Origin: an uncultured Planctomycetia bacterium
GTDB lineage: Bacteria; Omnitrophota; Gorgyraeia; 2-02-FULL-51-18; JAGOUK01
Length of the DNA: 64,000 nt
Assembly: GCA_964430735.1 (NCBI GenBank)
Contig: CAYSFB010000002.1
Location: 222,027 to 286,026, forward strand
Direction: 5' to 3'
Positions 6,369-43,310 of this stretch are shown here, piece by piece. Position numbers and translations under genes: made by a program. Below the pieces are notes generated by a model. The model did not search any database and was not told where the DNA came from. It was given only the letters and a program-made list of their open reading frames with translations. Numbering within the stretch: position 1 is the first letter of the stretch; the number at the start of each line of letters is the position of its first letter.

Positions 6369-7679
6369 CTAGACGGCGGCGGACTTGAGCTTTTCGGCGG
6401 CGGCGCGGAGGCGTTTGACGACGCGGTCCTTGCCCACCAGCGAAACGGTCTCGAAAAATCCGGGGCTCACCATCCGGCCCGTCACCGCGATGCGGCACGG
6501 GTGGATGAACTGCTTGCCGGATACTCCGATCGAGGTCATGAACTCGCGCGAAGCTTTTTCGACGGATTCGTGTCCGAAGTCCGAAAGGCCTGCCAGACAG
6601 TCCGCGTATTTTACAAAAATTTCGGGCAATTTGGCATCTTTCTTCAGAACCGCGTCCCCTTCCTCGCCCCAGGGAGCATCGTCCTGGAAGAAGAAGGTCG
6701 TGTCCGCCGGCAGGTCCTTCATTACGAACACGCGCTCACGATAGAGGGCCGTAAACCGGTCCATCCACTCCGCGGCCGGCTCCTCCTGGATCAGACCCGC
6801 CGTCTTGAGCGCTTCGACGAAGAGGCGCTTGAGCTCCGCGGGCGCAAACGCCCGGATGTACTCGCCGTTCACCCAATCCATCTTCTTGATGTTGAAGATC
6901 GCGCCCGTCGACTGCACGCGCTCGAGCGTGAACTTTTCGACCATCTCCTGAAGTCCGATGATCTCCTGGTTGTTCCCGGGCGACCAGCCGAGCAGGGCCA
7001 GATAGTTCACGATCGCCTGCGGCAGGTAGCCGGCGAGCTTGTAATCGCGCACGCTCGTCGCGCCGTGGCGCTTGGACAACCGTGAGCGGTCTTCGCCCAG
7101 GATCAGCGGAATATGCGCGAACTTGGGCATTTCGAAGCCCAGCGCCGCGTAGAGCGGAATCTGTTTGGGGGTGTTCGAGATATGGTCCTCGCCGCGGATG
7201 ACGTGCGTGATGCCCATCTCGTGGTCGTCGACGACCACCGCGAAGTTGTACGTCGGCGTGCCGTCGGACTTCATGAGGACGAGGTCACCCAGAAGCTTGC
7301 CGTCAAACTCGATGCGGCCGCGGATCACGTCGTCCCAGCCGATCGTCACTTGAGGGCTCTTGAACCGCACTGCCTGGCCTTCGCCTTCGCGCACGGCCTT
7401 GCCTTCCGCGATCAGCTTTTCCGCGTACTGCTTGTACACGTCCAGCCGGCTCATCTGGTGCACGAGCGGCGCGTCCCAATTCATGCCGAGCCACTTGAGC
7501 GACTCGATAATCTCCTCTTCAAACTCCTTTTTGGAGCGCTCGCGGTCGGTGTCCTCGATGCGCAGGATGAACTCGCCGCCGTGATGGCGCGCGAACAACC
7601 AGTTAAAAAGCGCCGTCCGGGCGGATCCCATGTGAAGGTAACCGGTCGGGCTGGGGGCAAAACGCGTTTTGACTTTCAT
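6369..7679 (-). CDS. gltX: Glutamyl-tRNA synthetase (glutamate--tRNA ligase)
   Basis: RFAPSPTGYLHMGSARTALFNWLFAR (HIGH region), IEDTD and KLSKRHG (KMSKS-type motif). Overall GluRS length and order. Confidence 0.9.
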   Translation of the reverse strand: MKVKTRFAPSPTGYLHMGSARTALFNWLFARHHGGEFILRIEDTDRERSKKEFEEEIIESLKWLGMNWDAPLVHQMSRLDVYKQYAEKLIAEGKAVREGEGQAVRFKSPQVTIGWDDVIRGRIEFDGKLLGDLVLMKSDGTPTYNFAVVVDDHEMGITHVIRGEDHISNTPKQIPLYAALGFEMPKFAHIPLILGEDRSRLSKRHGATSVRDYKLAGYLPQAIVNYLALLGWSPGNNQEIIGLQEMVEKFTLERVQSTGAIFNIKKMDWVNGEYIRAFAPAELKRLFVEALKTAGLIQEEPAAEWMDRFTALYRERVFVMKDLPADTTFFFQDDAPWGEEGDAVLKKDAKLPEIFVKYADCLAGLSDFGHESVEKASREFMTSIGVSGKQFIHPCRIAVTGRMVSPGFFETVSLVGKDRVVKRLRAAAEKLKSAAV

Positions 7680-7711
7680 GATGGGCCTTATTTAAGGAAA
7701 AGGTTACAGGG

Positions 7712-10700: not shown

Positions 10701-11047
10701 TGGCGCGTGTCGTACTTTTGCTGCGGGATCGTGTTCTGGAACGGCTCGTAGTAATGCGTCTCTTTGCGCTGATTCACTTTGAGGAAGGTGCGGAAGCCGC
10801 GCAGCGACGTCATCTCGTAAGAACGGTTGGCGGGATAAAACTGCAGGATCGCGTGGTCCTTGTCCGAAACGCCGAAGCTCGCGATACCCTGGCCGCGATT
10901 CACATAAAACGCCCACAGCGGAATTCCGAACGGACCGGCGACGCCGGGCAAAAAGTTCGAAAACGGCTTCGCCTCGTTGTAATTTTCGATGACAAACGAG
11001 CCGTTCGGTTCGGACGCGTACTGGGGTTTCTTGTCTCGGGGGTTCAT
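7712..11047 (-). CDS. Large cytoplasmic protein, 1111 aa; candidate GH94-superfamily (GH94/GH149/GH161-like) glycoside phosphorylase or six-hairpin glycosidase
   Basis: Long unbroken ORF with no signal peptide. The DWYDALNGLPGLLG segment resembles the catalytic DWND(A/G)LN region of GH94 phosphorylases. The size matches ~1100-aa GH149/GH161 enzymes. The family assignment is tentative. Confidence 0.4.
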   Translation of the reverse strand: MNPRDKKPQYASEPNGSFVIENYNEAKPFSNFLPGVAGPFGIPLWAFYVNRGQGIASFGVSDKDHAILQFYPANRSYEMTSLRGFRTFLKVNQRKETHYYEPFQNTIPQQKYDTRQAMRVQAQGFSIEESNQSLGLDIKVSYFGVPGEPFAALARKVVIQNKLVVPTEIEIADGLPAVVPFGLKEWFLKDMSRTVEAWMKCEITPGKDPVAHFKLKADPEDRPEYQAVDGTHFYTSFGESSSLKHRGKLFQPSIIVDPEVLFGTRLDFTEPQEFIGRTPFAPDAQVLENKTPCAFSFYKLTLEPEETVTLYTLIGEAAEGTKFSKGIARVRDPKFFAAKEREAREVVQRLQDPITTVSGSSRFDDYCRQTFLDNVLRGGFPHRMTGPSGDFVFHIYSRKHGDLERDYNRFVVQPTYFSQGEGNFRDVNQNRRSDVWFEPKVKDLNVRTFFNLIQPDGYNPLVVEQLVLTLESPRDFRKAAGKILAAAELAELEAFLAKPRTPGEIAKFAEKLPSVAKSRDAALPVIFGSLKRLDTARHGEGFWIDHWTYNLDLLESYLAVYPEELDNALWRDASYTYYESDHIVRPRSQKYVKIAGDKIRQFGATARDAEKAELIRSRASEPHKVRLNRGKGKVAHSTLAAKMLCVIANKFASLDPFGAGVEMESDKPDWYDALNGLPGLLGSSLSETYELLRWVRFLESALRRSRVKAREARVAVPAELAELLRKNELLARRCLASKAPSKHQDFWDATHTAKEKYWAATRLGFQGREVKIPFKALKKMLAAFSAKLEEGIGRAYDPAKETCPTYFENEMVEYKTVPGKKGGREVIVPKKFRQRRLAAFLEGPMHALRVEKDPVRAKQIYDHVRSSDLFDRKLSMYTVTSNLEKESPEIGRARIFSPGWLENQSVFLHMEYKWLLETLKRGLTSEFFTDLQAALVPFQDPKVYGRSIFENSSFIASSAFSNRKVHGTGFVARLSGSTAEFLDMWLRMNLGHEPFRLDAKGQLEFSLNPVLPDWMFTKEETPRRIQLRDGSTQTITLPKNAYAFVFMSQTLITYMNPKHASTFGPRRAVVKRMVFLDAQKKQVIVDGNTLGPVHAKALRDGQIRRIDCELG

Positions 11048-11252: not shown

Positions 11253-11762
11253 ATGAAGAAACTAAATATTGCAGCATTAACAACTCTCGCCCTTTTCCTG
11301 ACGGTGCCGGCCCTGGCCAATAACACCACCGTCAGCGTCAACGTCTCCTGCACGATCCTCCCCTTATTTGAGATGGAAGTGATCAGCCCCGTCAACGGGA
11401 TCGAATTCGGCGCGATCCAAAAGAATCCGGACGCCAACGTAGATGTCAGCGCGCCGGAAATCACCATCCGCGCCAAGACCAATATGGGCCAACCCTATAT
11501 CATCAAGCACGAACTTCTGACGCCCCTCGCCAGCGATAACGGCGCAATCCTTCCGGACGGCTCCATGAGCGTTGATGCCACCAGCGGCAACGGCTCAACG
11601 GCGCAAGGCCAGGCGGTCGGCACCGACCCGGAGGTTTTGTACCAATCCGACGCCAACGGCCAAAGCGATACGATTACGGCACGCTACAACCTGAACGTGC
11701 ATCCCGATCAGGACGCCGGTCAGTACCAGTCCAAACTGCTCTATACGATTGTGACGGCCTAG
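11253..11762 (+). CDS. Secreted spore-coat-protein-U (SCPU)/Csu-pilin-like subunit, 169 aa
   Basis: Signal peptide MKKLNIAALTTLALFLTVPALA. N-terminal TVSVNVSCTILP matches the SCPU V-x-a-x-V-x-x-C-x-i motif. C-terminal GQYQSKLLYTIVTA matches the SCPU G-x-Y-x-(S/D)-x-x-T-(Y/F)-x-I motif. RBS AAGGATGGG. Confidence 0.6.
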   Translation: MKKLNIAALTTLALFLTVPALANNTTVSVNVSCTILPLFEMEVISPVNGIEFGAIQKNPDANVDVSAPEITIRAKTNMGQPYIIKHELLTPLASDNGAILPDGSMSVDATSGNGSTAQGQAVGTDPEVLYQSDANGQSDTITARYNLNVHPDQDAGQYQSKLLYTIVTA

Positions 11763-11775: not shown

Positions 11776-12570
11776 TTAAGCGGAGACGGGCTCGAGACGA
11801 ACCGAACTTCCCTCGCGGAAGCTTCGGGCATCGCCCTCGAGGATGGAAGCGGTCGAGATACGCTCGTACAATGTTCCGATTTGAACCCTGCCGATCTTGC
11901 GATCCCCTGCAAATAAGTCGAATTTGGAATCCTGCTTGAGGCCGTTCTGCGAGCCCTGGCTCAGCACCACAAAACGGTGCTGTTCGTTCACGGTCAGGAC
12001 CTGGGCGCCGCTCTCTTTGAGTGAATCGAAGAATTTGGTCGGAGCGGGCGTCGCCACCGGCGCGGCCGCAATCGCGGCCTGCTGCATGACGGCCGGCATC
12101 GCCTGCTGTTCCACCTGAACCTGCCGAAGACCGGCGGCCGGGGCCTTCATCATGGCTGCGGCGGAACCGGCGCTCATCGGGCTTTGGGCCGTGATGTTGC
12201 GCAATTCGTTCTGAACCCCGTCCCAGGCGCCCGGCTGCTGGGTCCGAACCATCACCTCGCCCAGATCAACCGAACCCGAACCCGAAAGAAGTTTGATCAT
12301 CTCGGCCAGCAGACGGCGGATATGCTCGTCGCGCTCGCCCATCTGCTGGATCAGGAAACGCTTTTCGTTATTGGCCGCTTCGGCTTCCTGTTTCGCTTCG
12401 GCGAGGTCAGCCTGGCTCTTCACGAGCTGTTCGGAGACGGTTTTTAATCTTTTTTCAGCCTGGAGACGGATCTGTTTTTCGTATTTCCAGAAGAAGCCGG
12501 CGGAAAGAATGAGGACGATCGGAAGGATGCGGGCGATCATGAGGTAGGACGACCGATTCATCAATGACAT
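11776..12570 (-). CDS. Membrane-anchored coiled-coil protein with a small C-terminal beta domain; pilus-locus accessory protein of unknown function
   Basis: N-terminal TM helix ILPIVLILSAGFFW. Coiled coil QIRLQAEKRLKTVSEQLVKSQADLAEAKQEAEAANNEKRF. Ala/Gln-rich linker. It ends 31 nt downstream of the 12602..15526 outer-membrane protein gene on the same strand. Confidence 0.55.
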   Translation of the reverse strand: MSLMNRSSYLMIARILPIVLILSAGFFWKYEKQIRLQAEKRLKTVSEQLVKSQADLAEAKQEAEAANNEKRFLIQQMGERDEHIRRLLAEMIKLLSGSGSVDLGEVMVRTQQPGAWDGVQNELRNITAQSPMSAGSAAAMMKAPAAGLRQVQVEQQAMPAVMQQAAIAAAPVATPAPTKFFDSLKESGAQVLTVNEQHRFVVLSQGSQNGLKQDSKFDLFAGDRKIGRVQIGTLYERISTASILEGDARSFREGSSVRLEPVSA

Positions 12571-12601: not shown

Positions 12602-15526
12602 TCAAGAAACGGTGACCGGCAAGTCCTCGGAGCGCTGCGCCGGCGCAGCCGTAAACGTGAGATCCTTTGCAAAATCCGTCGTATAACCCGGCGCGGATCC
12701 GGGAACCAGCGTGAGCGTGTGCGTTCCGGCGGGAACGCGTTCGAACAAATAATATCCCTCGTCGTCCGCTTCAGCCTCCAGCGCGCCCAGTCGCACCTTC
12801 GCCTTCGCGACACCGGCCTCTTCCTTTTCCGCGTGGTTATTGCCGTTCGCGTCGACAAAGACGCGGCCGTTCACCGTGCGTTCGGCGGTCACCGCAAAGT
12901 CGAACCGGTACTGGACGCCCTCGCTCAACTCCAGCTGCTTGCGGATGGAGCCGACCGGCAGGTACCCGATGGGCAGCGACTTCAAGTCCAGTGTCATCGC
13001 GTGCGGGCCGGTCGCGACTTCGTCGAACCGGAAACGCCCGGACGCGTCAGAAACGCGCTGTTCCTTGCCGTCGAGGATGACTTTGACGCGGCCGACGGCC
13101 GTGTCGGTCGGATCGTACTTGCCGTTGCCGTTCAGGTCGTTGAACACAAGGCCCGCGATCGACGAACGCGACACGAGGCCAAAGTCCACGGACTTTCCGG
13201 CTTCGGCCAGTTCGACGTCGCGGCGCAGCGACCCGGTGACGGTATGTCCGTACGGAATTTTGTTGGGATCCAGGATGATCGTGGCGCGCTTGCCCCCGAT
13301 CGACGGCGTCTGGTAATTGCCCTGGGCGTCCGTCGTCACCTCCGTCCCGTTCGCGCGCACGATGAGGCCCGGCACGCCCGCTTCTTCCGGCTGGCGGCGT
13401 CCGTCGCCGTTCTTGTCCAGGTACACCGCGCCGAAGAATTTGGCCTGCGGCTCCCACCGGATCCCGGTGTCGTAGAGATACCGGACGCCGGTGACGATTT
13501 CGGCTTCGGCGCGCGCCTCGTTGATGCGGTTTTCGCCGCGCATGGCCGCGTACCGGCCGTCCAGGAAGAACTCCATATTCTCGAGCGTGTACGTCACCGA
13601 CCCCTGAAGCTCGAAGCGGTCTTCGCCGATCATGAAGCTGCGAAGGGATTCCGTCTCTTCCTCGTCGGTGTAACGCGCCGTGAGATCGGTCGTGAACGGC
13701 GTGTCCGCCAGCCGCGACCGGCGCGAAATCGCATACACCATCGACCGCGGGTGCGACACATCGTGGTTCAGGGTTTCTTCGAGCAGACTGATGTTGTGCT
13801 GATACGAAAAATACGTGTCCTTGAACAGCAGCGTCTGCATGCCGAGTCCGAGCGTGTTGCGGCGGTAGTTTGACTCCGGGTTCGACAGACTCTCGGTGTC
13901 GTCGTTCGAGAACCGGCTGTACAGCGAAACGCGGCGGTCGCCGATCGGGATGCCCTGCGTGTACGTGAGCGCCTGGCTCTTGGTGCGGTACGGGGAGATG
14001 AGGGCCGTTTCCTCATAATCCTTGAGGTCCGCCTGCAGCGACGACAAAGACGAAATCCGCCACTGGAGACTCGCGTCCTGCCGGGTGTTGAACCGGTCGT
14101 ACTCCGACGGCAGGAAAAACTGCCGGTCGCGGTACACGTCGAGCGCGAACCGCGCGTTGACCGAATCCGAAATATTCCACAAGAGGTCCGAGTTGATGCC
14201 CTGCTCGCCCTGGCCGCCGGGGTTGCCGACGACGGTGAAAAAACGCTTGGATGTGTCGCGCAGCTCGGACTTGAACTGCAGCCCCGGATAACGCCACGTC
14301 CCCGCGACGCGGTTCGAAAAATGGTCGCTGTCGTATCCCGTGTGGGTCGTCACGCCGAAATGGTCCGTCACCTTGTAGGCCTGGTCAAATTCAAAAGCCA
14401 TGTCGTTCAAGTCCTCCACCCGCGACTGGCCGTGCGCCTGCACGTAACCGAAGCGGTACTTGGCCGCCGGGTTGAGTTCGTAATCCACGAACCCGCCGCC
14501 CGCGTACGAATCGAGCGTCTCCTGCCCTCCGCCGAGACCGGTCGTCCCGAGCGTTCCCAGAATGCTGGTGAGTTCACGGCCGTAAAACGCGGTGTAGATA
14601 AACGGCTTTTTTTTGGGACGGTGATCCCATTGGACGCCGCGGAACCGGTACTGGGGCAAAATGAGCATGTCGGTCCTCATCTGCGTGTCGATCATCGACA
14701 GATCCGCGTCCTCGATCGCACCGTAATGAAAATCACTGATCCGCGCGGAGATCTGGCTGAGCTCGGGCTTGTTGTCGATCTCGCGGATTTCGGCATTGCC
14801 CGAAAATGCGCCGACCGGCGTGTCGCCGGTGACCTTGAAGCCCTGGCTGTAAGCAAGCGAGCTCTGGGCCAGCGTTTCGAAGTCGTTGCCCTGATAGTAC
14901 TGGGAACGGTTGTTGGTGTATTCGACCTTGAAGCTGTCGGCGCGTTCGATACGCTCTTCACGGCGTTTGACATACTGGGCGATGGATTTTTGCGGGATGA
15001 CGCGGATTTGGAGCGTCACGCGTCCTTCGACTTCCCAGATATGGACCACGGTGGTTCCGATCGCGGTGGCCTTCATCTGAAGCGCGCCCGGATTGATCAG
15101 GAAAAATTCGACTTTGTCTTCCGTCGTCGCGAGATAACGCTGAATGCCCCGGCCTTCGACCGTGGCGACCTGACCCAGCTCGAGGTCCAGCGGCCGCGTC
15201 ACGTTGCGAAGCTCGTCCATCGAGACCGTCACCGGATCCGGAACGCGGATGACCATTTCGTCCTGGTCGGCTTCGGTGGGCTCGAAGTATTTGGCGATGG
15301 GTCCGGAGGACTTCGTCTTGGTGCCTTCAAGAAACCCTTGAGGCCGAGTTTCGGCGGCTTCTTCGGGACCGCCGGAAGAGAACCGGTCGTTCCAGACGCT
15401 GTCCATTTTAAAAAACCGGGTGTTGGAGTCGGCAAAAGCGGGCCTTGCGGCGGCCAGAACCAAAAGGAACAGGAACGCAGCCGTTGAAGGAAGAAACAGC
15501 CGGAGGGGCCGGTGTTGCTGGATCAC
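12602..15526 (-). CDS. Large outer-membrane protein (usher-like candidate) with three C-terminal Cna-B/CarboxypepD_reg-like repeats
   Basis: The likely start is a GTG whose TG overlaps the chaperone TGA stop (GAGTGATCC), immediately before the signal peptide RPLRLFLPSTAAFLFLLVLAAARPAFA. The track's ATG at 15625 would overlap the chaperone gene by 100 nt. The middle region is beta-rich. The C-terminus has repeats GLVFNDLNGNGKYDPTD...GRVKVIL, GRVFVDANGNNHAEKEE...AKVRL, and YLDKNGDGRRQPEE. Confidence 0.6.
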   Translation of the reverse strand: MIQQHRPLRLFLPSTAAFLFLLVLAAARPAFADSNTRFFKMDSVWNDRFSSGGPEEAAETRPQGFLEGTKTKSSGPIAKYFEPTEADQDEMVIRVPDPVTVSMDELRNVTRPLDLELGQVATVEGRGIQRYLATTEDKVEFFLINPGALQMKATAIGTTVVHIWEVEGRVTLQIRVIPQKSIAQYVKRREERIERADSFKVEYTNNRSQYYQGNDFETLAQSSLAYSQGFKVTGDTPVGAFSGNAEIREIDNKPELSQISARISDFHYGAIEDADLSMIDTQMRTDMLILPQYRFRGVQWDHRPKKKPFIYTAFYGRELTSILGTLGTTGLGGGQETLDSYAGGGFVDYELNPAAKYRFGYVQAHGQSRVEDLNDMAFEFDQAYKVTDHFGVTTHTGYDSDHFSNRVAGTWRYPGLQFKSELRDTSKRFFTVVGNPGGQGEQGINSDLLWNISDSVNARFALDVYRDRQFFLPSEYDRFNTRQDASLQWRISSLSSLQADLKDYEETALISPYRTKSQALTYTQGIPIGDRRVSLYSRFSNDDTESLSNPESNYRRNTLGLGMQTLLFKDTYFSYQHNISLLEETLNHDVSHPRSMVYAISRRSRLADTPFTTDLTARYTDEEETESLRSFMIGEDRFELQGSVTYTLENMEFFLDGRYAAMRGENRINEARAEAEIVTGVRYLYDTGIRWEPQAKFFGAVYLDKNGDGRRQPEEAGVPGLIVRANGTEVTTDAQGNYQTPSIGGKRATIILDPNKIPYGHTVTGSLRRDVELAEAGKSVDFGLVSRSSIAGLVFNDLNGNGKYDPTDTAVGRVKVILDGKEQRVSDASGRFRFDEVATGPHAMTLDLKSLPIGYLPVGSIRKQLELSEGVQYRFDFAVTAERTVNGRVFVDANGNNHAEKEEAGVAKAKVRLGALEAEADDEGYYLFERVPAGTHTLTLVPGSAPGYTTDFAKDLTFTAAPAQRSEDLPVTVS

Positions 15527-16329
15527 TCGATCGTAATCTTTTTTTCCTCGACCAGCAGCGCGCCTTCGCCCATGTCGAAGGTGAACACGCCGTCGTAAAC
15601 TCCGGGAGCGAGGCGGCCGGCCCATTCGGTTTCTTGCGAGACGACGGCTCCGGCGCGGGCGTAGATCGTGGTGAGTTTGCCGCGGGCTTTCACGCCGCCC
15701 TCGAAGTCCATCAGGACGAATTCACCTTCCAGAGCGACCGCCGTGTTGCCGGTGTTGTGAAAAACGGTCTTGATCACCGCGGGACGGTTGCCTTTTCCGG
15801 GTGTGAGGGTCAATTCCTTGATTTTTCCTTCGCGCCGGATCGAGCCGGCGATGTCGACGTAAAAGAGCGATCCGATGCGTCCCGCGACCGTGACGCTTGC
15901 GCCCTCTTCGTTCTGCCCCATGCCGAGCGACGTCTCGAAAAACAGGATCGAGTACCGGGTGCCCGTCGAAGCGTCCGCGTCCGCCGGAACCGCGACGGTG
16001 TAATCGACGGTCTGCCGGCCGAAGGGTTCGATGGTCAGCTGACTGGGGTTGTAGGTGATCCAGGGCGAGGCGCTGTTCGGAAGCGTGCCGGCCGGAAAAA
16101 AGTCCTTGTCGCCGTTTCCGGTGTCGAGATATTCCCAGTCTTCGGTATAAACCTTCACGGTCACCGTGCCGTCGGTCGGATTCGAAATATGGATCTGTCC
16201 GGTTTTGGTTTCTCCGGCGGCGGCCTCGATCCGCACGCGCGCCTCGTCGATCCGGATCGTCGCCGCTTGCGCGGACGAAGCAGCCCACAGCAGGACCGCA
16301 AAAACCGCAAATATCCGATGTCGCATCAT
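15523..16329 (-). CDS. PapD-like periplasmic pilus-assembly chaperone
   Basis: Start chosen at ATGATG after a GGAG RBS, giving signal peptide MMRHRIFAVFAVLLWAASSAQA. The track's longer ORF starts at 16428. N-domain pattern RIDEARVRIEAAAGETKTGQIHISNPTDGTVTVKVYTEDW and IGSLFYV resembles PapD/FimC (..RVIF...L.I.N......L.Q.W...KLFYRP). It has two Ig-like halves. Confidence 0.55.
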   Translation of the reverse strand: MMRHRIFAVFAVLLWAASSAQAATIRIDEARVRIEAAAGETKTGQIHISNPTDGTVTVKVYTEDWEYLDTGNGDKDFFPAGTLPNSASPWITYNPSQLTIEPFGRQTVDYTVAVPADADASTGTRYSILFFETSLGMGQNEEGASVTVAGRIGSLFYVDIAGSIRREGKIKELTLTPGKGNRPAVIKTVFHNTGNTAVALEGEFVLMDFEGGVKARGKLTTIYARAGAVVSQETEWAGRLAPGVYDGVFTFDMGEGALLVEEKKITIE

Positions 16330-16494: not shown

Positions 16495-17094
16495 TTAGGC
16501 CAGTGCGATCGTGTAGGTCGCCGAGGCGCTGTAGCTGCCCTGAGCCTGATCGAGCAGGATGGGCTGCCAACCGGTGAACGGAGGAGTGACACCGCCGCCG
16601 CTGATACCGTAAACGAGCTGGATCGTGGCCGCAGTACCCGCCGTGTTGGAGGTGTAGATCGTGGTGTTGTTCATCACCGCGTTCTGACCGCCGGCCGGGA
16701 ACACGTCACCCGTGATGTCGTTGTTGCCCGACTTGGCCGAAACCACCGTGCAGACCATCGCATGAGGAAGGGTCTGGGCGCCATTGGTCAGAGCCGGCAT
16801 CGTCGCCTTCACCGTGTAGGCACGGCTGGACGTGTTCGTGGACAGGTACACCGTGTAAGGATCCGCACCGCGCATGACACCGTTGACCGTATCACGGACC
16901 AGCTGGCCGAAGGGCATCGACGAACCGAGATTCGCACCGGTGGGAACACCGTTCGCATCCAGCTTATAGGTGGCCATCGTGATGTCGAGGACCTGATCCA
17001 CGCTCGCCGCAGCCGTCACCGTCTGGGAAGTGGCCGCCAGAGCGGGCATCGAGATCGCAAGAGACGTCGCAAGAATCGCAATTACCTTCTTCAT
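16495..17094 (-). CDS. SCPU/Csu-like secreted fibre subunit, type A (copy A1)
   Basis: Signal peptide MKKVIAILATSLAISMPALA. C-terminal GSYSASATYTIALA. About 50% identical to 18179..18781. GGAGG RBS. Confidence 0.6.
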   Translation of the reverse strand: MKKVIAILATSLAISMPALAATSQTVTAAASVDQVLDITMATYKLDANGVPTGANLGSSMPFGQLVRDTVNGVMRGADPYTVYLSTNTSSRAYTVKATMPALTNGAQTLPHAMVCTVVSAKSGNNDITGDVFPAGGQNAVMNNTTIYTSNTAGTAATIQLVYGISGGGVTPPFTGWQPILLDQAQGSYSASATYTIALA

Positions 17095-17146: not shown

Positions 17147-17194
17147 ATAAAAAACCGGGCTGCCTAACCGTTTGATTGGCCTTGGCAGCCCGGC
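17147..17194 (-). terminator. Hairpin plus U6 (intrinsic-terminator-like) 53 nt upstream of the A1 start; candidate leader attenuator, or a terminator for B1
   Basis: Minus strand reads CCGGGCUGCC-N20-GGCAGCCCGG-UUUUUU. A putative sigma70-like promoter (TTGATA-N17-TATACA) lies further upstream at about 17380-17420, immediately after the B1 stop. That promoter would put this hairpin inside a ~250-nt 5' leader. Confidence 0.4.
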
Positions 17195-17421
17195 TGACCT
17201 TGAACACCTCAAGGTTCCTGGAGCTTTGCGTCCCACCCTTACGGATGGTTTGCCTTTTCAGTCCCGTATTCGTCTTTTGAATGAACCGCTTTGCTTACGA
17301 ACCGGACGAATATCTGTTTGAAGTCTACCCTACGCGATACGAGATTTCAAGAGTCTACAGAAACTTTTTTTATATGTTATATGATAAATGTTTGTATAAA
17401 TGTCGATTAACACGATATCAA

Positions 17422-18847: not shown

Positions 18848-19480
18848 TTACGATGCCAGCTCGATCTGGAACGTGATCGAGGACAGATAATTGCCCCCCG
18901 CCTGGTCCGCAGGGACGATCTGCGTCGATCCCAGCCCGCTGTCGCTCGTCACCGCGTAGGTCATCGCCACCGGTGCATAAAGCCCTGACGGGCCGCTCTC
19001 GTACAGAACTTTTCGCGTCGAAACAAAACTTCCTCGGCTGCCGATCGTCGCGCCGGACGGATACGCGGCGCCGTTCTTGTCCACCGGCCACGGCGTCACG
19101 ACACAGGCGCCGGCAGGGATCGTCGTCGTCCCGTTGCTGAGAGCCGCGGCGGCCTGGGTCAGCCGGTAAGGCCGCTGGGACGAATTCGGGTGCAAATAAA
19201 CGTCAAAGTAATACTCGCCGCGCATAGGGCCGTTCGTGACGTCGCTTTTCAGCAGGCCGAAGGCGATCTGCGATGCGCCGTAGTTGATCACGGTTCCGTC
19301 TTTGATCTGACGAATCTCGATCCCCAGCTCCAGCTGGGACTGAATGCTGGCCGACATCGGAACCGTGACGGTATCCGCTGCCAAAACGCATGCGCTGCTG
19401 TTCAGAAATAAGCTGAAGGCAGCAATTCCGGAACAGATTAAAAAAGCTCGATTAAAAGGGGTCAACATTAGCTTCATCAT
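18848..19480 (-). CDS. SCPU/Csu-like secreted fibre subunit, type B (copy B2)
   Basis: Signal-peptide-like N-terminus. C-terminal GGNYLSSITFQIELAS. Shares the internal motifs MRGE(N/Y)YFDVYLHPNSS and TPWPV(N/D)K(D/N)G with B1. An AT-rich promoter-like region lies upstream at 19481..19612. Confidence 0.6.
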   Translation of the reverse strand: MMKLMLTPFNRAFLICSGIAAFSLFLNSSACVLAADTVTVPMSASIQSQLELGIEIRQIKDGTVINYGASQIAFGLLKSDVTNGPMRGEYYFDVYLHPNSSQRPYRLTQAAAALSNGTTTIPAGACVVTPWPVDKNGAAYPSGATIGSRGSFVSTRKVLYESGPSGLYAPVAMTYAVTSDSGLGSTQIVPADQAGGNYLSSITFQIELAS

Positions 19481-19612
19481 TCAATTTGGAGATAGGGCAT
19501 TCTACTGCTTCGCCCCAAAAATAACAAGAAAATCTATTTTCTAAATAGTCATGTTATTTGGATAAATACTAAACTCGGTCGGAGGGATATTGGGGGTCAA
19601 ACAGGCTGCGAA

Positions 19613-20998
19613 CTACGAGAGAGAAGAGAGGGAGTACGTGGTCTCGGAGGTGTACTCGCCGCCGCTGGTGTCGCGGGGAAGCGTGAGGGTGTAATCGATC
19701 ATAAAATCGTCCGAACTGCCTTCCGAATCGGAAGTAAAGATGGCGGTGTCCCCTGCCTGAACGGGCTTCACGCTCATGACGGCCATTTCGCCCGTCCGGG
19801 CGCCGCTCATCACCAGCGTGAAGTTGTCCGGCGGCAGAATGCGGCCGCTTTCGTTGGTGAAGAGGCGCGACACTCGCTGAATCACCTGGTAGCGCTGCCC
19901 CGTATTGTTGTGGGCCTGAATATGCACCCGCCGAGTCTGCGCATCCCCTTCGTTCTTGAATTTGCCGAAGTTGAGGCCGCCGGCTGATTCATGCTCCACG
20001 TCGAGATAAAACAGGGTTTCGATTTCGAGGTCCAACGGCACCGTCACCGGCACGGCGAAGTCGGCCGATGCGTCGGATTCGACAAAGAATTCGATCGTGG
20101 ACCGGTACGGCCCGGCCGTAGCGGAAGCCACTTCTTCGCCGGTCCGGTACGCCACAGTAAAGGAGGCGGCGGAACCAGCGTCATCCGATTCATAAACCAG
20201 CGTCTGAGTTGTCGACAGCGGCTGCTCCTGTGCGACCACCTGCCCGGCATCCGCACGGGAGGCCAGCGCCAGGATGCCGCCCTCATTCATAGCTTGGCCC
20301 ATGGGACCGGACAGGCGGTCCGTCAGCCGCTGATACACCCGGTAACGGCCGCCGAGTCCGGCTCCGATGCGCACTTCGAGAGCGCCCGTGCCTTCCGGCC
20401 GCTGGCGCGTGATCCGGCCGAGACTCAAGGAGGATCCGCCGTTGACATTTTTGACGTCGAGGAAAAAGTCGGGACGAACTTCGGCGGTCACCTGAAGCAC
20501 CCGCGTCACCGTGGAGGCGCCTCCGTCGACGGGCTCCATCTGATACACGAGCTCGGAGCGGTAAACGCCCGCGGCATCCGTGGGTTGGGATTCGAGCGCG
20601 AAGACGAGCGCAAATGTCTCGGCCGAACCGCCGTTGTCGGAATCGAAGATCACCGTCTGACCGGGTTCCAACGCCGTCGGAAAAATGATCCCGAGACGCC
20701 CCCCGACCGAGCTGGGGCTGAACACCTTGACCGCTCCCGGAGACAGGGTCTGGCCGCGCTCATTGAGGAAAGGGCTCATCTGCTGCTGGACGATCCGGTA
20801 GCGCCGGCCCTCGTCGTTGGCGACCGTCAGTGTCACTTCTTCGTTGCGGGTGGGCTGGCCGGGTTTGGCCGGGGTAAAACGGACATCGCGTCCCCCGCGG
20901 TCGGGAAGGACCGAAAAGTCGAACTGCGCCCATGCCGTCTGGGCAAAGCCCGCGCAGGCGCACAGCAGAAGCAGGAGGGATTTGAAAGGAAGCTTCAT
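19613..20998 (-). CDS. Secreted protein built from three tandem SCPU-like domains; candidate tip adhesin or pre-polymerised subunit
   Basis: Start at MKLPFKSLLLLLCACAGFAQTAWA after an AAGG RBS; the track ORF starts 12 codons earlier. There are three ~150-aa repeats. Each carries an RYR(I/V)(V/Y)Q motif and ends in an SCPU-like G-x-Y-x-S motif (AGVYRSELVYQME, AGPYRSTIEFFVE, GGEYTSETTYSLS). Confidence 0.55.
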   Translation of the reverse strand: MKLPFKSLLLLLCACAGFAQTAWAQFDFSVLPDRGGRDVRFTPAKPGQPTRNEEVTLTVANDEGRRYRIVQQQMSPFLNERGQTLSPGAVKVFSPSSVGGRLGIIFPTALEPGQTVIFDSDNGGSAETFALVFALESQPTDAAGVYRSELVYQMEPVDGGASTVTRVLQVTAEVRPDFFLDVKNVNGGSSLSLGRITRQRPEGTGALEVRIGAGLGGRYRVYQRLTDRLSGPMGQAMNEGGILALASRADAGQVVAQEQPLSTTQTLVYESDDAGSAASFTVAYRTGEEVASATAGPYRSTIEFFVESDASADFAVPVTVPLDLEIETLFYLDVEHESAGGLNFGKFKNEGDAQTRRVHIQAHNNTGQRYQVIQRVSRLFTNESGRILPPDNFTLVMSGARTGEMAVMSVKPVQAGDTAIFTSDSEGSSDDFMIDYTLTLPRDTSGGEYTSETTYSLSSLS

Positions 20999-21041: not shown

Positions 21042-23897
21042 CTAGAATTCTCCGTCGAGGCTGAAGCGGAACAGATGCTCCGTGTCGACCGTGGGAAGCG
21101 AGAAGGTAGTGACGGAATAGGCGGACACCGGAAGCGCGTCGGAGCCTTCGTAGAAGGTCTGGCCGAACACGCCGTACTCCATGGTCAGACGCGTGTTGGT
21201 GTTGATCCGATAACGCAGACGCGTGTAAATGTTGTGGTTGTCCTCGAATTCAAGCTCGGTGTAACCGGACGCGATCAGCTTGGGGATATCCCCCAGATGG
21301 CTGTGGGTGTAATCGAAGAAAGCCGACCACCGGTCGTCGATCTGCCAATCGATGCTGATTCCCTGATGTTCGACGTTATCGTCGATCGGACCCCAGAGCG
21401 TGTACGTGTTCTGCGCCGCGTGGAAGATGAACTGCAGGTCTTCGGTATGGCGGTACGTGATGCGCTCCTTGACGATCGAGAAGTAGTCGTAGGGAGGCAG
21501 GTCAAAAATGTCCTGACGGTACAAAAACGCCTGGTTGCGGTACAGCCACCAGCTGGGCGTGTTCGGGTCCTGGAACATCGTGGTCGCGTACACGTTGTTG
21601 AGCAGGCCGCGCGGAAAGTCCGGAATGTCATTGGTGTATTCGAAGGTTCCGGAGAGCGTCCACTGATGGGTCGGCTCCCACTGGAGCCCCTGGCCGAAGG
21701 AACGGCGGTTCGCGTTGAGACCCGGATCGATCATGCTGTTCTCGTAGTAGATCCCCTCCTTGAGCGCAGGGTCGTTCAGCGCCGGCGAGTTGAAGCCGGA
21801 GATAAAAGGCTCGCGGTCGCTGAGCGTCTTGGGAAGGATGTGGAAACGCATGAAGTTCTTGAACGTCCAGTCCTGCGCGAACTTCCAAGTGGTCTCGTCG
21901 CGGATGACGTTTTCGATGAAGCTGTTGGAATCGGTGTCGCGGACGTGGCGCAAGTCGAACAGGTTGTCCACGCCTTTGTCCGGGCTCGACGTCGCCAGAT
22001 TCAACCGCGCGACATAACGGCCGTAATCGACGCCGGTTCCGATCTTAAACGGTTCGACGTCGGGCGGAATCTTCGCCCAGGTGATGTGCGTCCCCCAGAA
22101 TTCGTCGTCCCGGAGCGAAGTGTAATTGGACAGCGTTTCTTTGAACTCCGTGTCCACCCACGTGAAGTCGCCGTTGACACGGGTGATGCCGGATTTGGAA
22201 TCGCCGACGTGCGAAACGAATCCGCCCACATAAGCCTGGCCTTCGTAAGCCGTCTGGAACGAGCTCAAGCGGTCGAGGTCGTCGCGCGAACCGGCCATCT
22301 GGCCGTACATGTAATCGGTTTCGTTGGTGTAATACTTGGTGTCGATCGAAATCACCTGGTTGTACGCGTCCGGTTCCCGGTCGATCAATCCCACCCGGTA
22401 GGTGTAGGTCGATCCGAGCATCCACTGCTCGGTGACCTGATGCTTCAGCCGCACCACGCCCGGAATGTTATCGAATTCCTGATAATCGTCCCACAGGCCG
22501 TACCGGGACGCGATCATCATTCCCAGATAAGTTCTGCCGAAATCGGCTTCGACCGCACCGCCGCGGAGCAGCGTCAGGTAATTGCCCTCGGAATCCTTGG
22601 CATAAAACGCTTCTTCGTCGCTGTAATAGCCGCGGCGGATCACCGGAGACCGGGCGATCGGCACGCCGATCGGGTTGAACTTTTGAAGCGGCTCCCACTG
22701 TTCCAACCACGCCGAGTGCTCCCAGAAGTCTTTGCGGTTCGACAGCTGCAGCGGATCGTCCGTCGTCATCACCTGGTTCTGATCCGCCAGCGCGAAGAGC
22801 CGCACATGCCAGATGTCGCCCTCGTGATCCCACCAGGCCTTGCGCAGCGGACGGAACTCGTAGTCGATATCCTGGGCCGGCACGTTGTACGTGTTGAAGT
22901 TGCTGCCGATCCCGAACGCGTCGTAAATACCGTGGACGGTGTAGGGCTGAGTGGCGCCGTTTTCGGCCTCGAGCTCCGGCGTCGCCATGGAATTACCGGC
23001 ACGGCTCTTGACGATCGTGGGGATCGTGGAGTTGTTGGGGCCCCAGTATTTCTGTTTGATGCGGAAGGAATCGGCTCCGCCGACGCTGGGGACTTCGATT
23101 TCGCTGGTCTGACCCACATACGACCAGGGATCGGCGACGATCTGGACAAAAACGGAATCCTGCTTCGTCACCTGCGAGTCGATGTCGAGACGGTACTGGC
23201 TGTAAATCGCCGGATCGAAGGTGTTGTACTGGCGGTCGCCGAACAGGTAGTGGAAGTCGCGGTCCTGAAGGTCGGAGTTGGAATCGTTGAGCGAAAAGTT
23301 CCGGTTGCGGCCCGCGCCGAACGCCGCGCGGTAAGTTCCCGAAACGCGCGTGCGGGAAGCGATTTCGCGGTCGATCGCGTCCATGTCTTCATAGTTCTGG
23401 TCGATCACTTGCTTGGGATCGGGCGCAGGCACGGCGGCGGCAGGCTTGGCGGCGACAGGATTGACTGCGGCCGGCCTGACTGCGGCCGGGGCCTGGACGT
23501 TGCGGACCGGAGCGGATTCCGTCGCCGGACTCTTGGCCGGCGTTATATTAGAGGAGGAGGTGGCGGCTGTCGACTTGGGCGCAACCGCGGGCGATGCTGA
23601 TTTGACCGAAACCGGCGTACCTTGGCTTGCAGCCGGCGCGGAAGCGGTTACCGCGGGCTTGCCAGGCTGTGCCGCGGTGTGTTCGGGCTTCCAAAATGCG
23701 GCTTCACGCGCGCGCTTGAGATGATCCTGAATTTTGGAATCGAGGTCGTTGAGCTCTTTATCGAATTCTTCGAACTCGGCGTTGGATTGAGCCGCTGAGA
23801 CGGGAGCGGCACCGACTGCCTGCCACAGGAAACAGGCCGCCAGCAAGAAGCTGAAAGATTTGAGCGGACGAATGGAAAAAGAAGTTCCGGAGTTCAT
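21042..23897 (-). CDS. Large outer-membrane beta-barrel protein, ~951 aa, with an N-terminal coiled coil and an Ala/Pro/Ser-rich linker
   Basis: Start chosen at MNSGTSFSIRPLKSFSFLLAACFLWQAVGAAPVSAAQS (signal peptide). The track's 23941..24071 extension would overlap the upstream gene. The C-terminus ...FRFSLDGEF ends in Phe, as outer-membrane barrels usually do. The protein is rich in aromatic/Gly beta-strand patterns. Confidence 0.55.
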   Translation of the reverse strand: MNSGTSFSIRPLKSFSFLLAACFLWQAVGAAPVSAAQSNAEFEEFDKELNDLDSKIQDHLKRAREAAFWKPEHTAAQPGKPAVTASAPAASQGTPVSVKSASPAVAPKSTAATSSSNITPAKSPATESAPVRNVQAPAAVRPAAVNPVAAKPAAAVPAPDPKQVIDQNYEDMDAIDREIASRTRVSGTYRAAFGAGRNRNFSLNDSNSDLQDRDFHYLFGDRQYNTFDPAIYSQYRLDIDSQVTKQDSVFVQIVADPWSYVGQTSEIEVPSVGGADSFRIKQKYWGPNNSTIPTIVKSRAGNSMATPELEAENGATQPYTVHGIYDAFGIGSNFNTYNVPAQDIDYEFRPLRKAWWDHEGDIWHVRLFALADQNQVMTTDDPLQLSNRKDFWEHSAWLEQWEPLQKFNPIGVPIARSPVIRRGYYSDEEAFYAKDSEGNYLTLLRGGAVEADFGRTYLGMMIASRYGLWDDYQEFDNIPGVVRLKHQVTEQWMLGSTYTYRVGLIDREPDAYNQVISIDTKYYTNETDYMYGQMAGSRDDLDRLSSFQTAYEGQAYVGGFVSHVGDSKSGITRVNGDFTWVDTEFKETLSNYTSLRDDEFWGTHITWAKIPPDVEPFKIGTGVDYGRYVARLNLATSSPDKGVDNLFDLRHVRDTDSNSFIENVIRDETTWKFAQDWTFKNFMRFHILPKTLSDREPFISGFNSPALNDPALKEGIYYENSMIDPGLNANRRSFGQGLQWEPTHQWTLSGTFEYTNDIPDFPRGLLNNVYATTMFQDPNTPSWWLYRNQAFLYRQDIFDLPPYDYFSIVKERITYRHTEDLQFIFHAAQNTYTLWGPIDDNVEHQGISIDWQIDDRWSAFFDYTHSHLGDIPKLIASGYTELEFEDNHNIYTRLRYRINTNTRLTMEYGVFGQTFYEGSDALPVSAYSVTTFSLPTVDTEHLFRFSLDGEF

Positions 23898-23940: not shown

Positions 23941-25890
23941 CTATCTATCGTCAAAAGGGTTAAAACCCTTCCACGCAAAAATGCCGTACGCCGTGCCCGC
24001 GACGGAACCGGTGCGGTTGCCGGCCGGCGTACGCCAGCCGTGGCCCGTTTCGACGTCTCCGGCAGTGGCATATGGCAGACATCCGCGGCCCTGGCCGACG
24101 CGCGACAGGCTCGAGATGATCATTTTTTGCAATTCGTTGAGATAGAAGTTGATTTTGTCCCGGTAATACGCCGCTTTTTCCGCGTTGCCCGCCGCTTCAA
24201 AATATTTTTCCAGAATCCGGAACGTGACGACGGCCTGCGCCGTCCACTCGGACGACACGACGCCGCCGCGGCCCTGGTTCTGCGGCTTGGCGAAGTCGAA
24301 TCCCGTGACGCGCACCGAGCGTCCGTCAGGCCGGTCAAAGTTGACCTCGACGCGGCAATGCTCTTCCGCGAATTCCATGATCCCTTCCGGGTCGAACTGC
24401 GCTTCGGCCAGCCGCGCCGGGCCGATCGCAGCGATCGACCAGCTGAACGTGTCAGTCGCAATGGTTGCGTCCCCTTTACCGCGCTTGAACGCGCCGCTCG
24501 TGCGGTCGGCCGCATGCTTCATCAGCCACGCGAACAATTCCTCCTGCGCCTTGAGATAACGCGCGTCCTGCGTGAGCCGGTGCAGCATCCCGAAAAACGC
24601 GTACGCGTCCAGGTTGTGCTCGGTGCTGAACCACTCGGTCTTCGGCCCGCCGCGCAGTCCGCGCTCCGGGTCGCGCGCCTGCAGCTCAAGCAGCCAATTC
24701 CCGATCGACTGCGCCAAGCCCTGAAACGCGGTGTCGCCCGTCATCCGCTGGTATTGCAGAGCGGCGATGCCGATCCAGACGTTGGGACCGACGTGCACAT
24801 TCCACTCGACCGGCTCGCCCGAGGGAGCGTCGTACGACGAGATATAAGCTCCCTCGGATTTCTTGGCGCGATCCCGGTAAAACGTCAGAATGCGACGCGC
24901 GTTGTCATTTTTTTGAAAAAGTGTGAACGCGATCGCCGCGACGGCCTGGTCATAGGTGTACGCGATCCCCTCGAGCTTCGGATCCCCTTCGTAGCTGGGC
25001 AAAAGACCTGTCTGCGTGTTCGCGTGGCGCTCAAGCCAGGAAACAAGCTGGGTGAGAACGGCTTCCTCTTTAAGACCCGAGGATTCGGACGCGGAATGGA
25101 GCGTGACGCGTCGGTCGGCGCTTTCTTTCTGGATCAGCGTGAGCTGGTTGCGCAGATCACTCTCGCGCTTGAGCGCCGCTTCGAGTTCCTGGTGAAAAAA
25201 TTCCGCCTGGTCTTCCGTCACGCCCTCCGCCGACATCGCCTGCGTGCTGCGCGCCTGCTGTTCCTTGGCCGCCTTGAGATCGAGCGCGAGTTTGCGCTGG
25301 CGCGACGCCATTTCTTCGAGCCCGCGGATGAGATCGTCGCGCCCTTCGGCCGACGTGACGATCGAAGAGACGAGGCGGCGGTTTTCCATCAGCAGATGAA
25401 TCTGGTTGAACGCCTGTCCGACGACGACCGCGCACAGGAACAGCACCGTGCCGATGAAAAACCGCGGGATGAAGCGGCGGATGCGCGCGTAACGAAAGAT
25501 TTTTTGGGCGACCCAGGATTCGGCGGTTTCGTACTGGACGCCGACCAGGTGGACGGAGCGGCCGTCTTCGTCTTTGCGGGAGAGCCATGCGACATGCGAA
25601 GTGACGGCGATGGGTTTGGGCCGGAACGGGGCGTGAACCAGGAGATCGAGCGTTGCCTGCCGCGATTCGAGGTCGGCGGCTTCGGTCGGCGGAAGCGAAC
25701 GGAATTCGAGCATCATGCCGCCAAGACTGACGTTGCGCGTAAAGCCCTGAAGCGAAACGGACGGCGCGGACTGACGGGGATGCCGGAGAACCATCTCGAC
25801 GGGAAAAACGGTGTCCATCCGGACATACCGGCGGCGCTCGGGTCCGGAGGCGTTGGGGTCGATCGCGCGCGGCTCGTCGGAGGTCGGCAT
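23941..25890 (-). CDS. PilZ-domain (c-di-GMP receptor) protein fused through one TM helix and a coiled coil to an (alpha/alpha)6 glycoside-hydrolase-like periplasmic domain
   Basis: PilZ motifs RRYVRMDT and NVSLGGMMLEF (RxxxR ... D/NxSxGG). TM helix FFIGTVLFLCAVVVGQAF. Coiled coil at residues ~180-260. The C-terminal 380 aa have a six-hairpin glycosidase-like pattern (GIAYTYDQAVAAIAF, WIGIAALQY, NLDAYAFFGM). The exact GH family is unresolved. Confidence 0.6.
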   Translation of the reverse strand: MPTSDEPRAIDPNASGPERRRYVRMDTVFPVEMVLRHPRQSAPSVSLQGFTRNVSLGGMMLEFRSLPPTEAADLESRQATLDLLVHAPFRPKPIAVTSHVAWLSRKDEDGRSVHLVGVQYETAESWVAQKIFRYARIRRFIPRFFIGTVLFLCAVVVGQAFNQIHLLMENRRLVSSIVTSAEGRDDLIRGLEEMASRQRKLALDLKAAKEQQARSTQAMSAEGVTEDQAEFFHQELEAALKRESDLRNQLTLIQKESADRRVTLHSASESSGLKEEAVLTQLVSWLERHANTQTGLLPSYEGDPKLEGIAYTYDQAVAAIAFTLFQKNDNARRILTFYRDRAKKSEGAYISSYDAPSGEPVEWNVHVGPNVWIGIAALQYQRMTGDTAFQGLAQSIGNWLLELQARDPERGLRGGPKTEWFSTEHNLDAYAFFGMLHRLTQDARYLKAQEELFAWLMKHAADRTSGAFKRGKGDATIATDTFSWSIAAIGPARLAEAQFDPEGIMEFAEEHCRVEVNFDRPDGRSVRVTGFDFAKPQNQGRGGVVSSEWTAQAVVTFRILEKYFEAAGNAEKAAYYRDKINFYLNELQKMIISSLSRVGQGRGCLPYATAGDVETGHGWRTPAGNRTGSVAGTAYGIFAWKGFNPFDDR

Positions 25891-42427: not shown

Positions 42428-42440
42428 ACTGCCCTCTTGA

Positions 42441-43253: not shown

Positions 43254-43310
43254 AGCTCATTGCACCTTATCGGGATCAAGAATATACCGTTTTGATTCAC
43301 TGTCGTAAGA

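Follow-up and report, generated by a model that had tools for sequence, protein, structure and literature searches.

The gene cluster described here lies in a 64,000-nucleotide stretch of contig CAYSFB010000002.1 from an uncultured Planctomycetia bacterium with an Omnitrophota lineage (assembly GCA_964430735.1, forward-strand positions 222,027 to 286,026; hereafter, the window). Its central gene encodes a secreted protein of 461 amino acids (aa), designated Tri, which consists of three tandem homologous domains (R1, R2, and R3). The cluster is headed by a gene for a PilZ-domain protein, followed by those for a 951-aa protein and Tri. Directly downstream of Tri on the same strand are the genes for four secreted small subunits of about 200 aa (S210, S200, S201, and S199), and then those for a 268-aa periplasmic protein, a 1007-aa protein, and a membrane-anchored coiled-coil protein. 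A further gene, convergent to this operon, encodes a free-standing 169-aa protein of the repeat type. In the public records, the proteins of the Tri system are all annotated as hypothetical. The positions of the features are listed in Table 1.

Table 1. Features of the Tri locus and c-di-GMP-I aptamers of related loci (positions refer to the window unless a related locus, L, is named)
Feature	Position	Strand	Basis or remark
649-aa PilZ-domain protein, cluster head	23941-25890	minus	PF07238, E 3.9e-7; kept in L002, L005, L008, L009, L010
951-aa protein, second outer-membrane candidate, always immediately upstream of Tri	21042-23897	minus	Synteny
Tri, three-domain pilin-like protein, 461 aa + stop	19613-20998	minus	Open reading frame (ORF) and translation
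Tri signal peptide, aa 1-24, signal peptidase I site A-x-A (…AWA/QFDF)	20927-20998	minus	A22 and A24 kept family-wide
Tri R1 core, aa 25-158, with strands A-F and without an N-terminal extension	20525-20926	minus	DSSP strands 26-156; HHalign
Tri linker 1, aa 159-178, Gly/Ser loop and strand G1 (164-174), putative in-cis donor for R1	20465-20524	minus	
Tri R2 core, aa 179-310, most variable domain	20069-20464	minus	DSSP; HHalign
Tri linker 2, aa 311-329, loop and strand G2 (318-326), putative in-cis donor for R2	20012-20068	minus	
Tri R3 core, aa 330-461, eight strands, ends after F, no G strand (open groove)	19616-20011	minus	
Small subunit S210, 210 aa, with signal peptide, N-terminal extension, and one pilin-like core	18848-19480	minus	
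Small subunit S200, 200 aa	18179-18781	minus	
Small subunit S201, 201 aa	17422-18027	minus	
c-di-GMP-I riboswitch aptamer, S199 leader	17181-17264	minus	RF01051, 57.4 bits (gathering 35), E 1.4e-8
Terminator-like hairpin and U6, putative expression platform	17147-17195	minus	Overlaps 3' part of the aptamer
Small subunit S199, 199 aa, predicted riboswitch control	16495-17094	minus	
268-aa periplasmic two-beta-sandwich protein, predicted PapD-like chaperone fold	15523-16329	minus	
1007-aa (~1000-aa) usher candidate, start codon uncertain	12602-15625	minus	Gene overlaps the chaperone gene
264-aa membrane-anchored coiled-coil protein, last operon gene	11776-12570	minus	ORF; ortholog found only in L010; no family match
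169-aa free-standing repeat-type pilin: signal peptide, N-terminal extension, core	11253-11762	plus	Convergent to the operon
Aptamers, paired, L002	12925-13006; 13851-13934		
Aptamers, paired, L003	1800-1882; 2658-2741		
Aptamer, single, L005	9559-9641		
Aptamer, single, L006	6625-6706		
Aptamer, single, L007	4924-5046		
Aptamer, single, L008	11547-11627		
Aptamer, single, L009	9549-9629		
Aptamer, single, L010	11643-11726		

A preliminary description of this DNA had placed a secreted 461-aa protein here and given no strand. The ORF and its signal peptide were confirmed, and the strand is minus. Translation starts at an ATG (position 20998; MKLPFKSLL…), and the product is identical, at the same length, to database protein P0001. 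The signal peptide contains LLCAC, but Tri was rejected as a lipoprotein, because the homologs lack a Cys there. An indexed search yielded 14 clusters of the Tri family with 36-100% identity, all of 458-465 aa and none of them named. An exhaustive profile search yielded 459 representative clusters at E<=1e-3, 224 of which scored E<=1e-30. Among the best 150 of the 459, nearly all were 440-480 aa long and gave a single end-to-end alignment over the profile; shorter members covered part of it and are probably fragments, and no version with two or four domains was found. The architecture of Tri is that of a conserved family and not a one-off.

The three internal repeats that the preliminary description had noticed were recovered by two methods. 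HHalign comparison of profiles built from 125 diverse members of the Tri family revealed homologous cores of about 135 aa (probability 99.8-99.9%, E 1e-27 to 1e-34). Smith-Waterman alignments between aa 25-175, 176-331, and 332-461 of Tri gave z scores of 12-21 against residue shuffles, and the observed score was reached by none of 300 shuffles. These results indicate that the repeats are not a compositional artefact, one of the outcomes that would have overturned that description. Self-BLASTP of Tri at default settings did not detect the repeats, so that Smith-Waterman alignment with shuffles and HHalign were needed. The motifs reported for the repeats hold for the most part. The F-strand signature G-x-Y-x-S-x-x-x-Y is exact in R1 and R3, whereas the final Y is replaced by F in R2 and two small subunits, and S by A in one small subunit. 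RYR(I/V)xQ is present in R1 and R2 but reads RYQVIQ in R3. The loop rich in Asp, Gly, and Ser occurs in all three repeats as (Y/F)xSDxxGS, with S120, D121, and G124 invariant or nearly so. The asserted kinship with the single-domain subunits was also upheld: the Tri repeats matched the family profile of the four ~200-aa neighbours with HHalign probabilities of 96-97% (E 2e-10 to 5e-9), and the domains are therefore homologous but distant. The 169-aa pilin is much closer to the Tri repeats than are the ~200-aa subunits (hmmsearch against the repeat profiles, E 1e-21 to 1e-24). Its orthologs occupy the same position in two related loci (L008, 16225-16767, minus; L010, 17415-17930, minus), and it could be an adaptor or a terminator.

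The two ends of Tri are unlike each other. In the AlphaFold2 (AF2) model of Tri, built from 14 homologs, DSSP assigned 9, 9, and 8 strands to the first, second, and third unit, respectively. Strand F of R1 (144-156) is followed by a Gly/Ser loop and a strand at 164-174, and strand F of R2 (296-308) by a strand at 318-326. In contrast, strand F of R3 spans 448-459, and then the chain stops; the C terminus lies 1-5 residues past this strand in essentially all of the 125 aligned members. At the other end, strand A of R1 follows directly after the signal peptidase site with no extension, again in nearly all 125 members. The small subunits and the 169-aa pilin bear about 15 additional N-terminal residues with alternating V, L, I, and A, and these free subunits end after strand F as the predicted R3 does. 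Thus, an incomplete immunoglobulin (Ig) fold without a C-terminal G strand, as expected of a chaperone-usher pilin, was found in the predicted R3, and an N-terminal extension with alternating hydrophobic residues was found in the small subunits and the 169-aa pilin, while Tri has homologous strands as its linkers.

The linker strands of Tri carry alternating hydrophobic residues throughout the 125 members, at 166/168/170/172/174 and 318/320/322/324/326. In chaperone-usher pili, a donor strand is recognised by five alternating hydrophobic residues, which occupy the P1-P5 pockets of the acceptor. The 169-aa pilin aligned end to end with linker 2 plus the R3 core (HHalign 99.9%, E 1.8e-31) and with linker 1 plus the R2 core (99.6%, E 7e-25), and in both alignments its N-terminal extension overlies the linker strands. 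The N terminus of the small subunits was likewise colinear with linker 2 plus strand A of R3 (E 2e-4). These alignments identify the linkers of Tri as homologs of the donor strand at the N terminus of the 169-aa pilin. It is therefore apparent, from the alignments together with the asymmetry of the ends, that Tri is composed of a core without an extension followed by two cores that each have one, and that the chain adds no strand beyond the third core. In a mutual-information scan of 22 strands, the best partner of G1 was the F strand of R1 (1.07 standard deviations) and that of G2 was the F strand of R2 (1.22 standard deviations), both antiparallel. The corresponding values for a linker strand and the F strand of the following domain were 0.31 (G1) and 0.82 (G2). 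This covariation lends weak support to cis complementation, because the alignment holds 125 sequences only, the paired strands are adjacent in sequence, and the signal is about one standard deviation.

The AF2 model of Tri is all-beta, with a mean predicted local distance difference test score (pLDDT) of 84.9 and a predicted template modelling score (pTM) of 0.56. A Foldseek search against the PDB gave as the top match 3f85, the homotrimeric CfaB fusion CfaBBB of CFA/I fimbriae (E 1.2e-15, template modelling (TM) score 0.47). For 3f84, a CfaB-CfaB fusion, the target-normalised TM score was 0.59-0.64. Other leading matches were 3f83 (CfaE-CfaB), SafDAA-dsc, CfaE, and CupB6. Superposition of one domain could not give a TM score of 0.64 on a two-domain target, and the model must therefore arrange its domains much as donor-strand-linked pilins do. 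The fold predicted in this way suggests that Tri is a pilin of the chaperone-usher type. The structural comparison proposed in the preliminary description was thus borne out as to a pilin-like fold, with class-5 CfaB fusions as the best matches; CsuA/B and CsuE were not among the top 50 matches. Its label "SCPU-like" was not supported. No match to the Pfam families SCPU (PF05229) or Fimbrial (PF00419) was obtained with the window proteins (E<=1) or with 16 small-subunit homologs and 80 diverse Tri members (E<=0.1). A search of the Tri-family profile against all PDB sequences found nothing. The sole hint from a curated family was NF058581 (CPR_Pam_pilin_C), with E 2.6e-4 and 21.1 bits against a cut-off of 55, at aa 414-455, that is, over the last two strands only.

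The 268-aa protein is predicted to have the fold of a PapD-like chaperone (AF2 model, pLDDT 92, pTM 0.80). In Foldseek, Enterococcus WxLIP structures ranked first (E 7e-13), followed by CfaA, EcpB, Caf1M, FimC, CupB2, SafB, PapD, YadV, CsuC, and FaeE (E 1e-9 to 1e-7). Chaperones of chaperone-usher systems accounted for more than 30 of the top 50 matches, with target TM scores of 0.5-0.6. Both PapD-type chaperones and WxLIP donate a strand that completes the beta-sandwich of the partner (PMC10599100). No match of the 268-aa protein to Pfam (PF00345 or PF02753) or NCBIfam was obtained, and a search of its profile against PDB sequences was empty. The protein is syntenic in every locus that extends far enough and has an invariant R151, located within a conserved GRIGSLFYV in the second, long hairpin strand of its N-terminal domain.

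Two large proteins are candidates for the outer-membrane component. Pfam analysis of five orthologs of the 1007-aa protein revealed an N-terminal pil_N domain (best E 5e-7), an unassigned centre of about 520 aa, and three Ig-like domains of the SdrD_B/CarboxypepD_reg type (SdrD_B, E 2e-22). No PDB sequence was matched by its profile. Its position and architecture suggest the role of an usher. The 951-aa protein gave no Pfam or PDB match; it ends in …L-x-G-E-F, in which L947, G949, and F951 are invariant.

Related loci were collected through a metagenome scan (3) and a genome scan (4), and the neighbourhoods were extended through exact-protein look-ups. Eleven related loci have a common gene order, which is kept down to 36% identity: a PilZ protein, a GH116-like gene, an 830-990-aa protein, Tri, one to five small subunits, a 265-290-aa protein, a 935-1136-aa protein, and a 264-aa membrane protein. 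In an Omnitrophota contig reached via the chaperone-like protein at 36% identity (L012), the order holds from Tri onward. The loci derive from metagenome-assembled genomes of Candidatus Omnitrophota/Omnitrophica or from genomes automatically labelled 'uncultured Planctomycetia'.

A c-di-GMP-I riboswitch aptamer (c-di-GMP, cyclic di-GMP) was found in the window, in the leader of S199; it was also aligned to the RF03167 variant. The terminator-like hairpin that overlaps it has a free energy of -29.1 kcal/mol and forms in the minimum free energy structure of the whole leader. The aptamer 3' segment GCCGGGCUGCC is at the same time the 5' arm of this hairpin, and ligand binding should therefore prevent termination, as in an ON switch; we infer this polarity from the terminator overlap only. 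One or two c-di-GMP-I aptamers were present in each of the nine related loci scanned (42.7-67.1 bits). In nine of ten loci, the window included, the aptamers are located downstream of Tri and directly upstream of small-subunit genes, with none upstream of Tri. The exception is L012, whose lone aptamer (11534-11613, minus) is on the opposite strand, before an 82-aa ORF and not before a recognised subunit gene. In addition, promoter-like sites precede S210 (19527-19499), S201, and the riboswitch, and a strong terminator-like hairpin (18136-18105) lies just downstream of S200. Together with the PilZ protein, this arrangement points to c-di-GMP licensing of the supply of rod subunits.

The PilZ protein has a long C-terminal region without a Pfam match. 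The GH116-like position is taken in L009 by a separate GH116-family glycosidase gene (3287-5440) between the PilZ gene and the ~830-aa protein gene, and in L005 by an unassigned 702-aa ORF; a GH116 gene beside the PilZ gene is a hint that the fibre may be connected with polysaccharide processing. An apparent 1387-aa fusion of the ~850-aa protein with Tri in L004 was an artefact of a masked run of 100 N (~2880-2980). L012 has two extra pairs of subunit and chaperone genes (213/269 aa and 203/272 aa; 7305-10578) after the usher candidate. L013 and L014 harbour distant, low-GC (guanine plus cytosine) systems with chaperones 26-33% identical, an AraC regulator upstream, and four ~175-aa subunits. 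In these, a 336-339-aa protein (L013, 8928-9938; L014, 4115-5134) is repeat-like only in its C-terminal half and looks like a classical two-domain tip subunit. The ~930-aa proteins that follow it in L013 and L014 were rejected as a guide to the usher (HHalign probability <4% against either large protein of the window). A 1111-aa ORF (7712-11047, minus) lies just beyond the 169-aa pilin gene, and ORFs of similar size (1085 and at least 1112 aa) are found beyond the operon in L009 and L010, differently placed relative to it.

Elsewhere in the window, the minus strand holds a giant ORF of 3669 aa (44563-55572); giant ORFs, possibly adhesins, have been noted in Omnitrophota genomes (PMC10066038). 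The GC content of 42001-46000 is 0.47-0.50, compared with about 0.60 elsewhere, and this stretch, which covers the 5' end of the giant ORF and minus-strand ORFs at 42756-43253 and 43524-44603, may be an acquired segment or one of distinct composition. The window contains just one tRNA, tRNA-Gln (CTG), at 6254-6327 (minus). A match to the long non-coding RNA HOTTIP_2 at 19460-19640 (E 0.015, 19.6 bits against 80) was dismissed as noise.

Taken as a whole, we consider Tri to be, with fair probability, a tip fibrillum or initiator that is made as a single chain, is complemented in cis, and belongs to a divergent fibre of the chaperone-usher-like kind. R1 would have lost its N-terminal donor strand, and R2 and R3 would have kept theirs as inter-domain linkers. 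Each linker would hairpin back after strand F of the preceding domain and fill the groove of that domain in cis, so that R1 and R2 would be permanently complemented, much as in the engineered CfaBBB fusion. The groove of R3, open after strand F, would be capped in the periplasm by the 268-aa PapD-fold protein. At the outer-membrane pore, this groove would then be taken by the next subunit (the 169-aa pilin or a ~200-aa subunit) through its N-terminal extension. The 169-aa pilin would be the most natural first partner or adaptor, because its extension most resembles the cis linkers. Tri would be the first protein through the pore and hence would act as initiator, tip, or adhesin. The c-di-GMP riboswitches would gate the supply of rod subunits, with the PilZ protein heading the operon. 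Since a protein that accepts a strand and cannot donate one has a place only at the distal end, exactly one copy of Tri per fibre would be expected.

Two suggestions had been made about the role of Tri. That three covalently linked subunit-like domains form a tip adhesin or initiator is the reading that fits best with the absence of an N-terminal donor strand and the open groove of the last domain. The self-complemented cap suggested as an alternative is consistent with R1 and R2, which appear to be complemented in cis by the linkers, but not with R3, whose chain ends after strand F in nearly all 125 members. Without a strand after F, R3 should accept the strand of another subunit and not cap.

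Several points weigh against this interpretation. In these uncultured organisms, the fibre is predicted from genes and modelled folds, and we infer from these its existence, the identity of the pore, the tip position of Tri, and an adhesin function. The in-cis pairing is deduced from strand counts, homology, TM scores, and weak covariation. With a pTM of 0.56, domain orientation in the Tri model is only moderately confident. Generic tandem-Ig proteins (AgI/II C123 and integrin legs) also matched Tri with E values of 1e-12 to 1e-10, although with TM scores of only about 0.2-0.3, and thus Foldseek E values alone are not pilin-specific. PF00577, the usher family, was absent at E<=1 in five orthologs of the 1007-aa protein and seven of the 951-aa protein, and no usher sequence in the PDB was matched. 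Finally, the mean column entropies of the 125 members were 2.34, 2.85, and 2.36 bits for R1, R2, and R3, respectively. R1 is therefore conserved as much as R3, whereas less conservation might be expected of a variable tip that binds receptors.

The strand ends of Tri also bear on whether the protein is polymerised at all. As a stand-alone tandem-Ig protein of the surface or periplasm, Tri would be a monomeric adhesin or a scaffold on the 951-aa protein, and the ninth strand missing from R3 would be a domain variant or would be filled permanently by the chaperone-like protein. The constant position of the Tri gene directly downstream of the 951-aa protein gene is consistent with this, as are the strong fold matches to generic tandem-Ig proteins and the absence of an identified usher. 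Furthermore, WxLIP, the top match of the chaperone-like protein, is a stable strand-donating partner and not an assembly chaperone (PMC10599100). We nevertheless regard this explanation as rather unlikely, because the paralogous free subunits bear an N-terminal extension suited to the groove of R3 and Tri specifically has none, and because pilin paralogs, a chaperone fold, and large outer-membrane proteins together form the signature of a fibre operon. The missing extension also argues against Tri being an anchor or terminator at the base of a fibre, like PapH or FimI. A terminator must donate its N-terminal strand to the last rod subunit, whereas nearly all 125 members start at strand A of R1 and keep the acceptor groove at R3. 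Although Tri is present as one copy per operon, is distinct from the major subunits, and has well-conserved R1 and R3, a position at the base is very improbable, and the 169-aa protein, with its extension, is the better candidate for a terminator or adaptor.

Membership in a known pilus class was considered as well. The preliminary description had taken Tri for a three-domain member of the SCPU or archaic (Csu-type) chaperone-usher class acting like CsuE. The general logic of pilin-like domains, a chaperone fold, and a tip-type topology fits such a member, CsuC is among the fold matches of the chaperone (ranks 34-43), and one of 80 Tri members gave a DUF4402 match (E 0.069). However, the lack of PF05229 and usher-family matches, the absence of CsuA/B and CsuE from the top 50 fold matches, which are headed by CfaB, CfaE, Saf, and CupB6, and the nature of CsuE, a two-domain adhesin with no tandem of pilin units, make this assignment improbable. 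The NF058581 hint raised the Pam pilus system of the candidate phyla radiation (CPR), which also uses Ig-like domains, donor-strand exchange, and PapD-like chaperones (10.64898/2026.03.03.709456). The score falls far below the cut-off and covers two strands. Moreover, Pam pilins have two domains (N-terminal, with nine strands, and C-terminal, joined by a linker), are reported to be exclusive to CPR bacteria, and work with membrane-anchored chaperones and no outer membrane (10.64898/2026.03.03.709456), whereas the 268-aa protein lacks a C-terminal helix and large outer-membrane candidates are present here. Membership of Tri in the Pam system, which we rate as hardly credible, is effectively refuted by the score and the differing architecture. 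A shared distant origin of the donor-strand Ig domain with the Pam pilins is possible.

The closest structural counterparts of Tri, 3f84 and 3f85, are engineered tandem CfaB fusions made to emulate donor-strand exchange (PMC2650451). CfaBB and CfaBBB (class-5/alternate, CFA/I) are similar to Tri in that tandem pilin Ig domains are each joined by the donor strand of the next unit. Unlike Tri, they were made in the laboratory, their linkers are artificial (DNKQ), and their last unit was given a donor strand too. Tri is natural, occurs in 459 clusters, and has an uncomplemented last domain and a first domain without a donor strand. The identity between Tri and the CfaB fusions is 12-14%, with no homology at the sequence level. 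Tip fibrillae and adhesins (FimH-FimG-FimF, PapG-F-E-K, CfaE, CsuE, and CupB6) share with the proposed Tri a distal position, the lack of an N-terminal donor strand, a single acceptor groove, and the expected priming of assembly. On the other hand, the units of known fibrillae are encoded by separate genes, associate non-covalently, and each need a chaperone cycle of their own, and known adhesins consist of a lectin domain and one pilin domain. Tri has three homologous pilin units in one polypeptide and would need a single capping event by the chaperone. Full-text literature searches found no natural multi-pilin fusions in chaperone-usher systems, in keeping with the earlier remark that the architecture is not standard for them.

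The 268-aa protein shares its two-beta-sandwich fold with PapD-like chaperones (CfaA, FimC, Caf1M, and CsuC) and WxLIP, but is about 40 residues longer than classical chaperones and matches neither of their Pfam families. Pam pili, which were recognised recently, are comparable in that they diverge in sequence, assemble by donor-strand exchange, and use PapD-like chaperones outside the Proteobacteria; they differ in pilin architecture, in chaperone anchoring, in having no outer-membrane component, and in being reported from CPR bacteria only. Riboswitch-controlled pilin genes of the GEMM-I type (RF01051) resemble the present ones in having an aptamer above the gathering score in the leader of pilin-like genes. 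What sets the present case apart is that the aptamer would control rod subunits in a chaperone-usher-like system and recurs inside a single pilin array. Full-text searches found no chaperone-usher pili in Omnitrophota, and the main paper on this phylum discusses only type IVa and Tad pili as attachment organelles (PMC10066038).

Although the system would function in the manner of a chaperone-usher pilus, its pilins, chaperone, and usher candidates match none of the corresponding sequence families, and it would therefore stand outside SCPU and every established clade. We tentatively propose, as a possibility somewhat short of probable, that it represents a previously unrecognised clade of donor-strand-exchange pili, widespread in Omnitrophota and related uncultured bacteria of the Planctomycetes-Verrucomicrobia-Chlamydiae type. 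In such a clade, pilins and chaperone would lie too far from all known chaperone-usher families for profile detection, and the translocon would not be FimD-like (the protein with pil_N, barrel, and three Ig domains, the 951-aa barrel candidate, or both). A fused three-pilin tip would be delivered in one chaperone cycle, and rod elongation would be licensed by c-di-GMP riboswitches. The nature of the translocon, a structural usher or something else, decides how far the system is from the known chaperone-usher kind.

For crystallisation, tandem, cis-complemented pilins had to be engineered by pilus biologists, and a natural and conserved version would show that evolution used the same solution. 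If the interpretation is true, donor-strand mechanics and usher priming could be studied in Tri as a stable, chaperone-light model. Since a canonical usher is apparently lacking, one may ask through which outer-membrane pore the fibre would be exported. The riboswitch arrangement would be a clear case in which c-di-GMP gates the rod subunits and not the tip. Furthermore, assembly of the chaperone-usher type would extend to the Omnitrophota, which are uncultured, often ultra-small, and possibly host-dependent.

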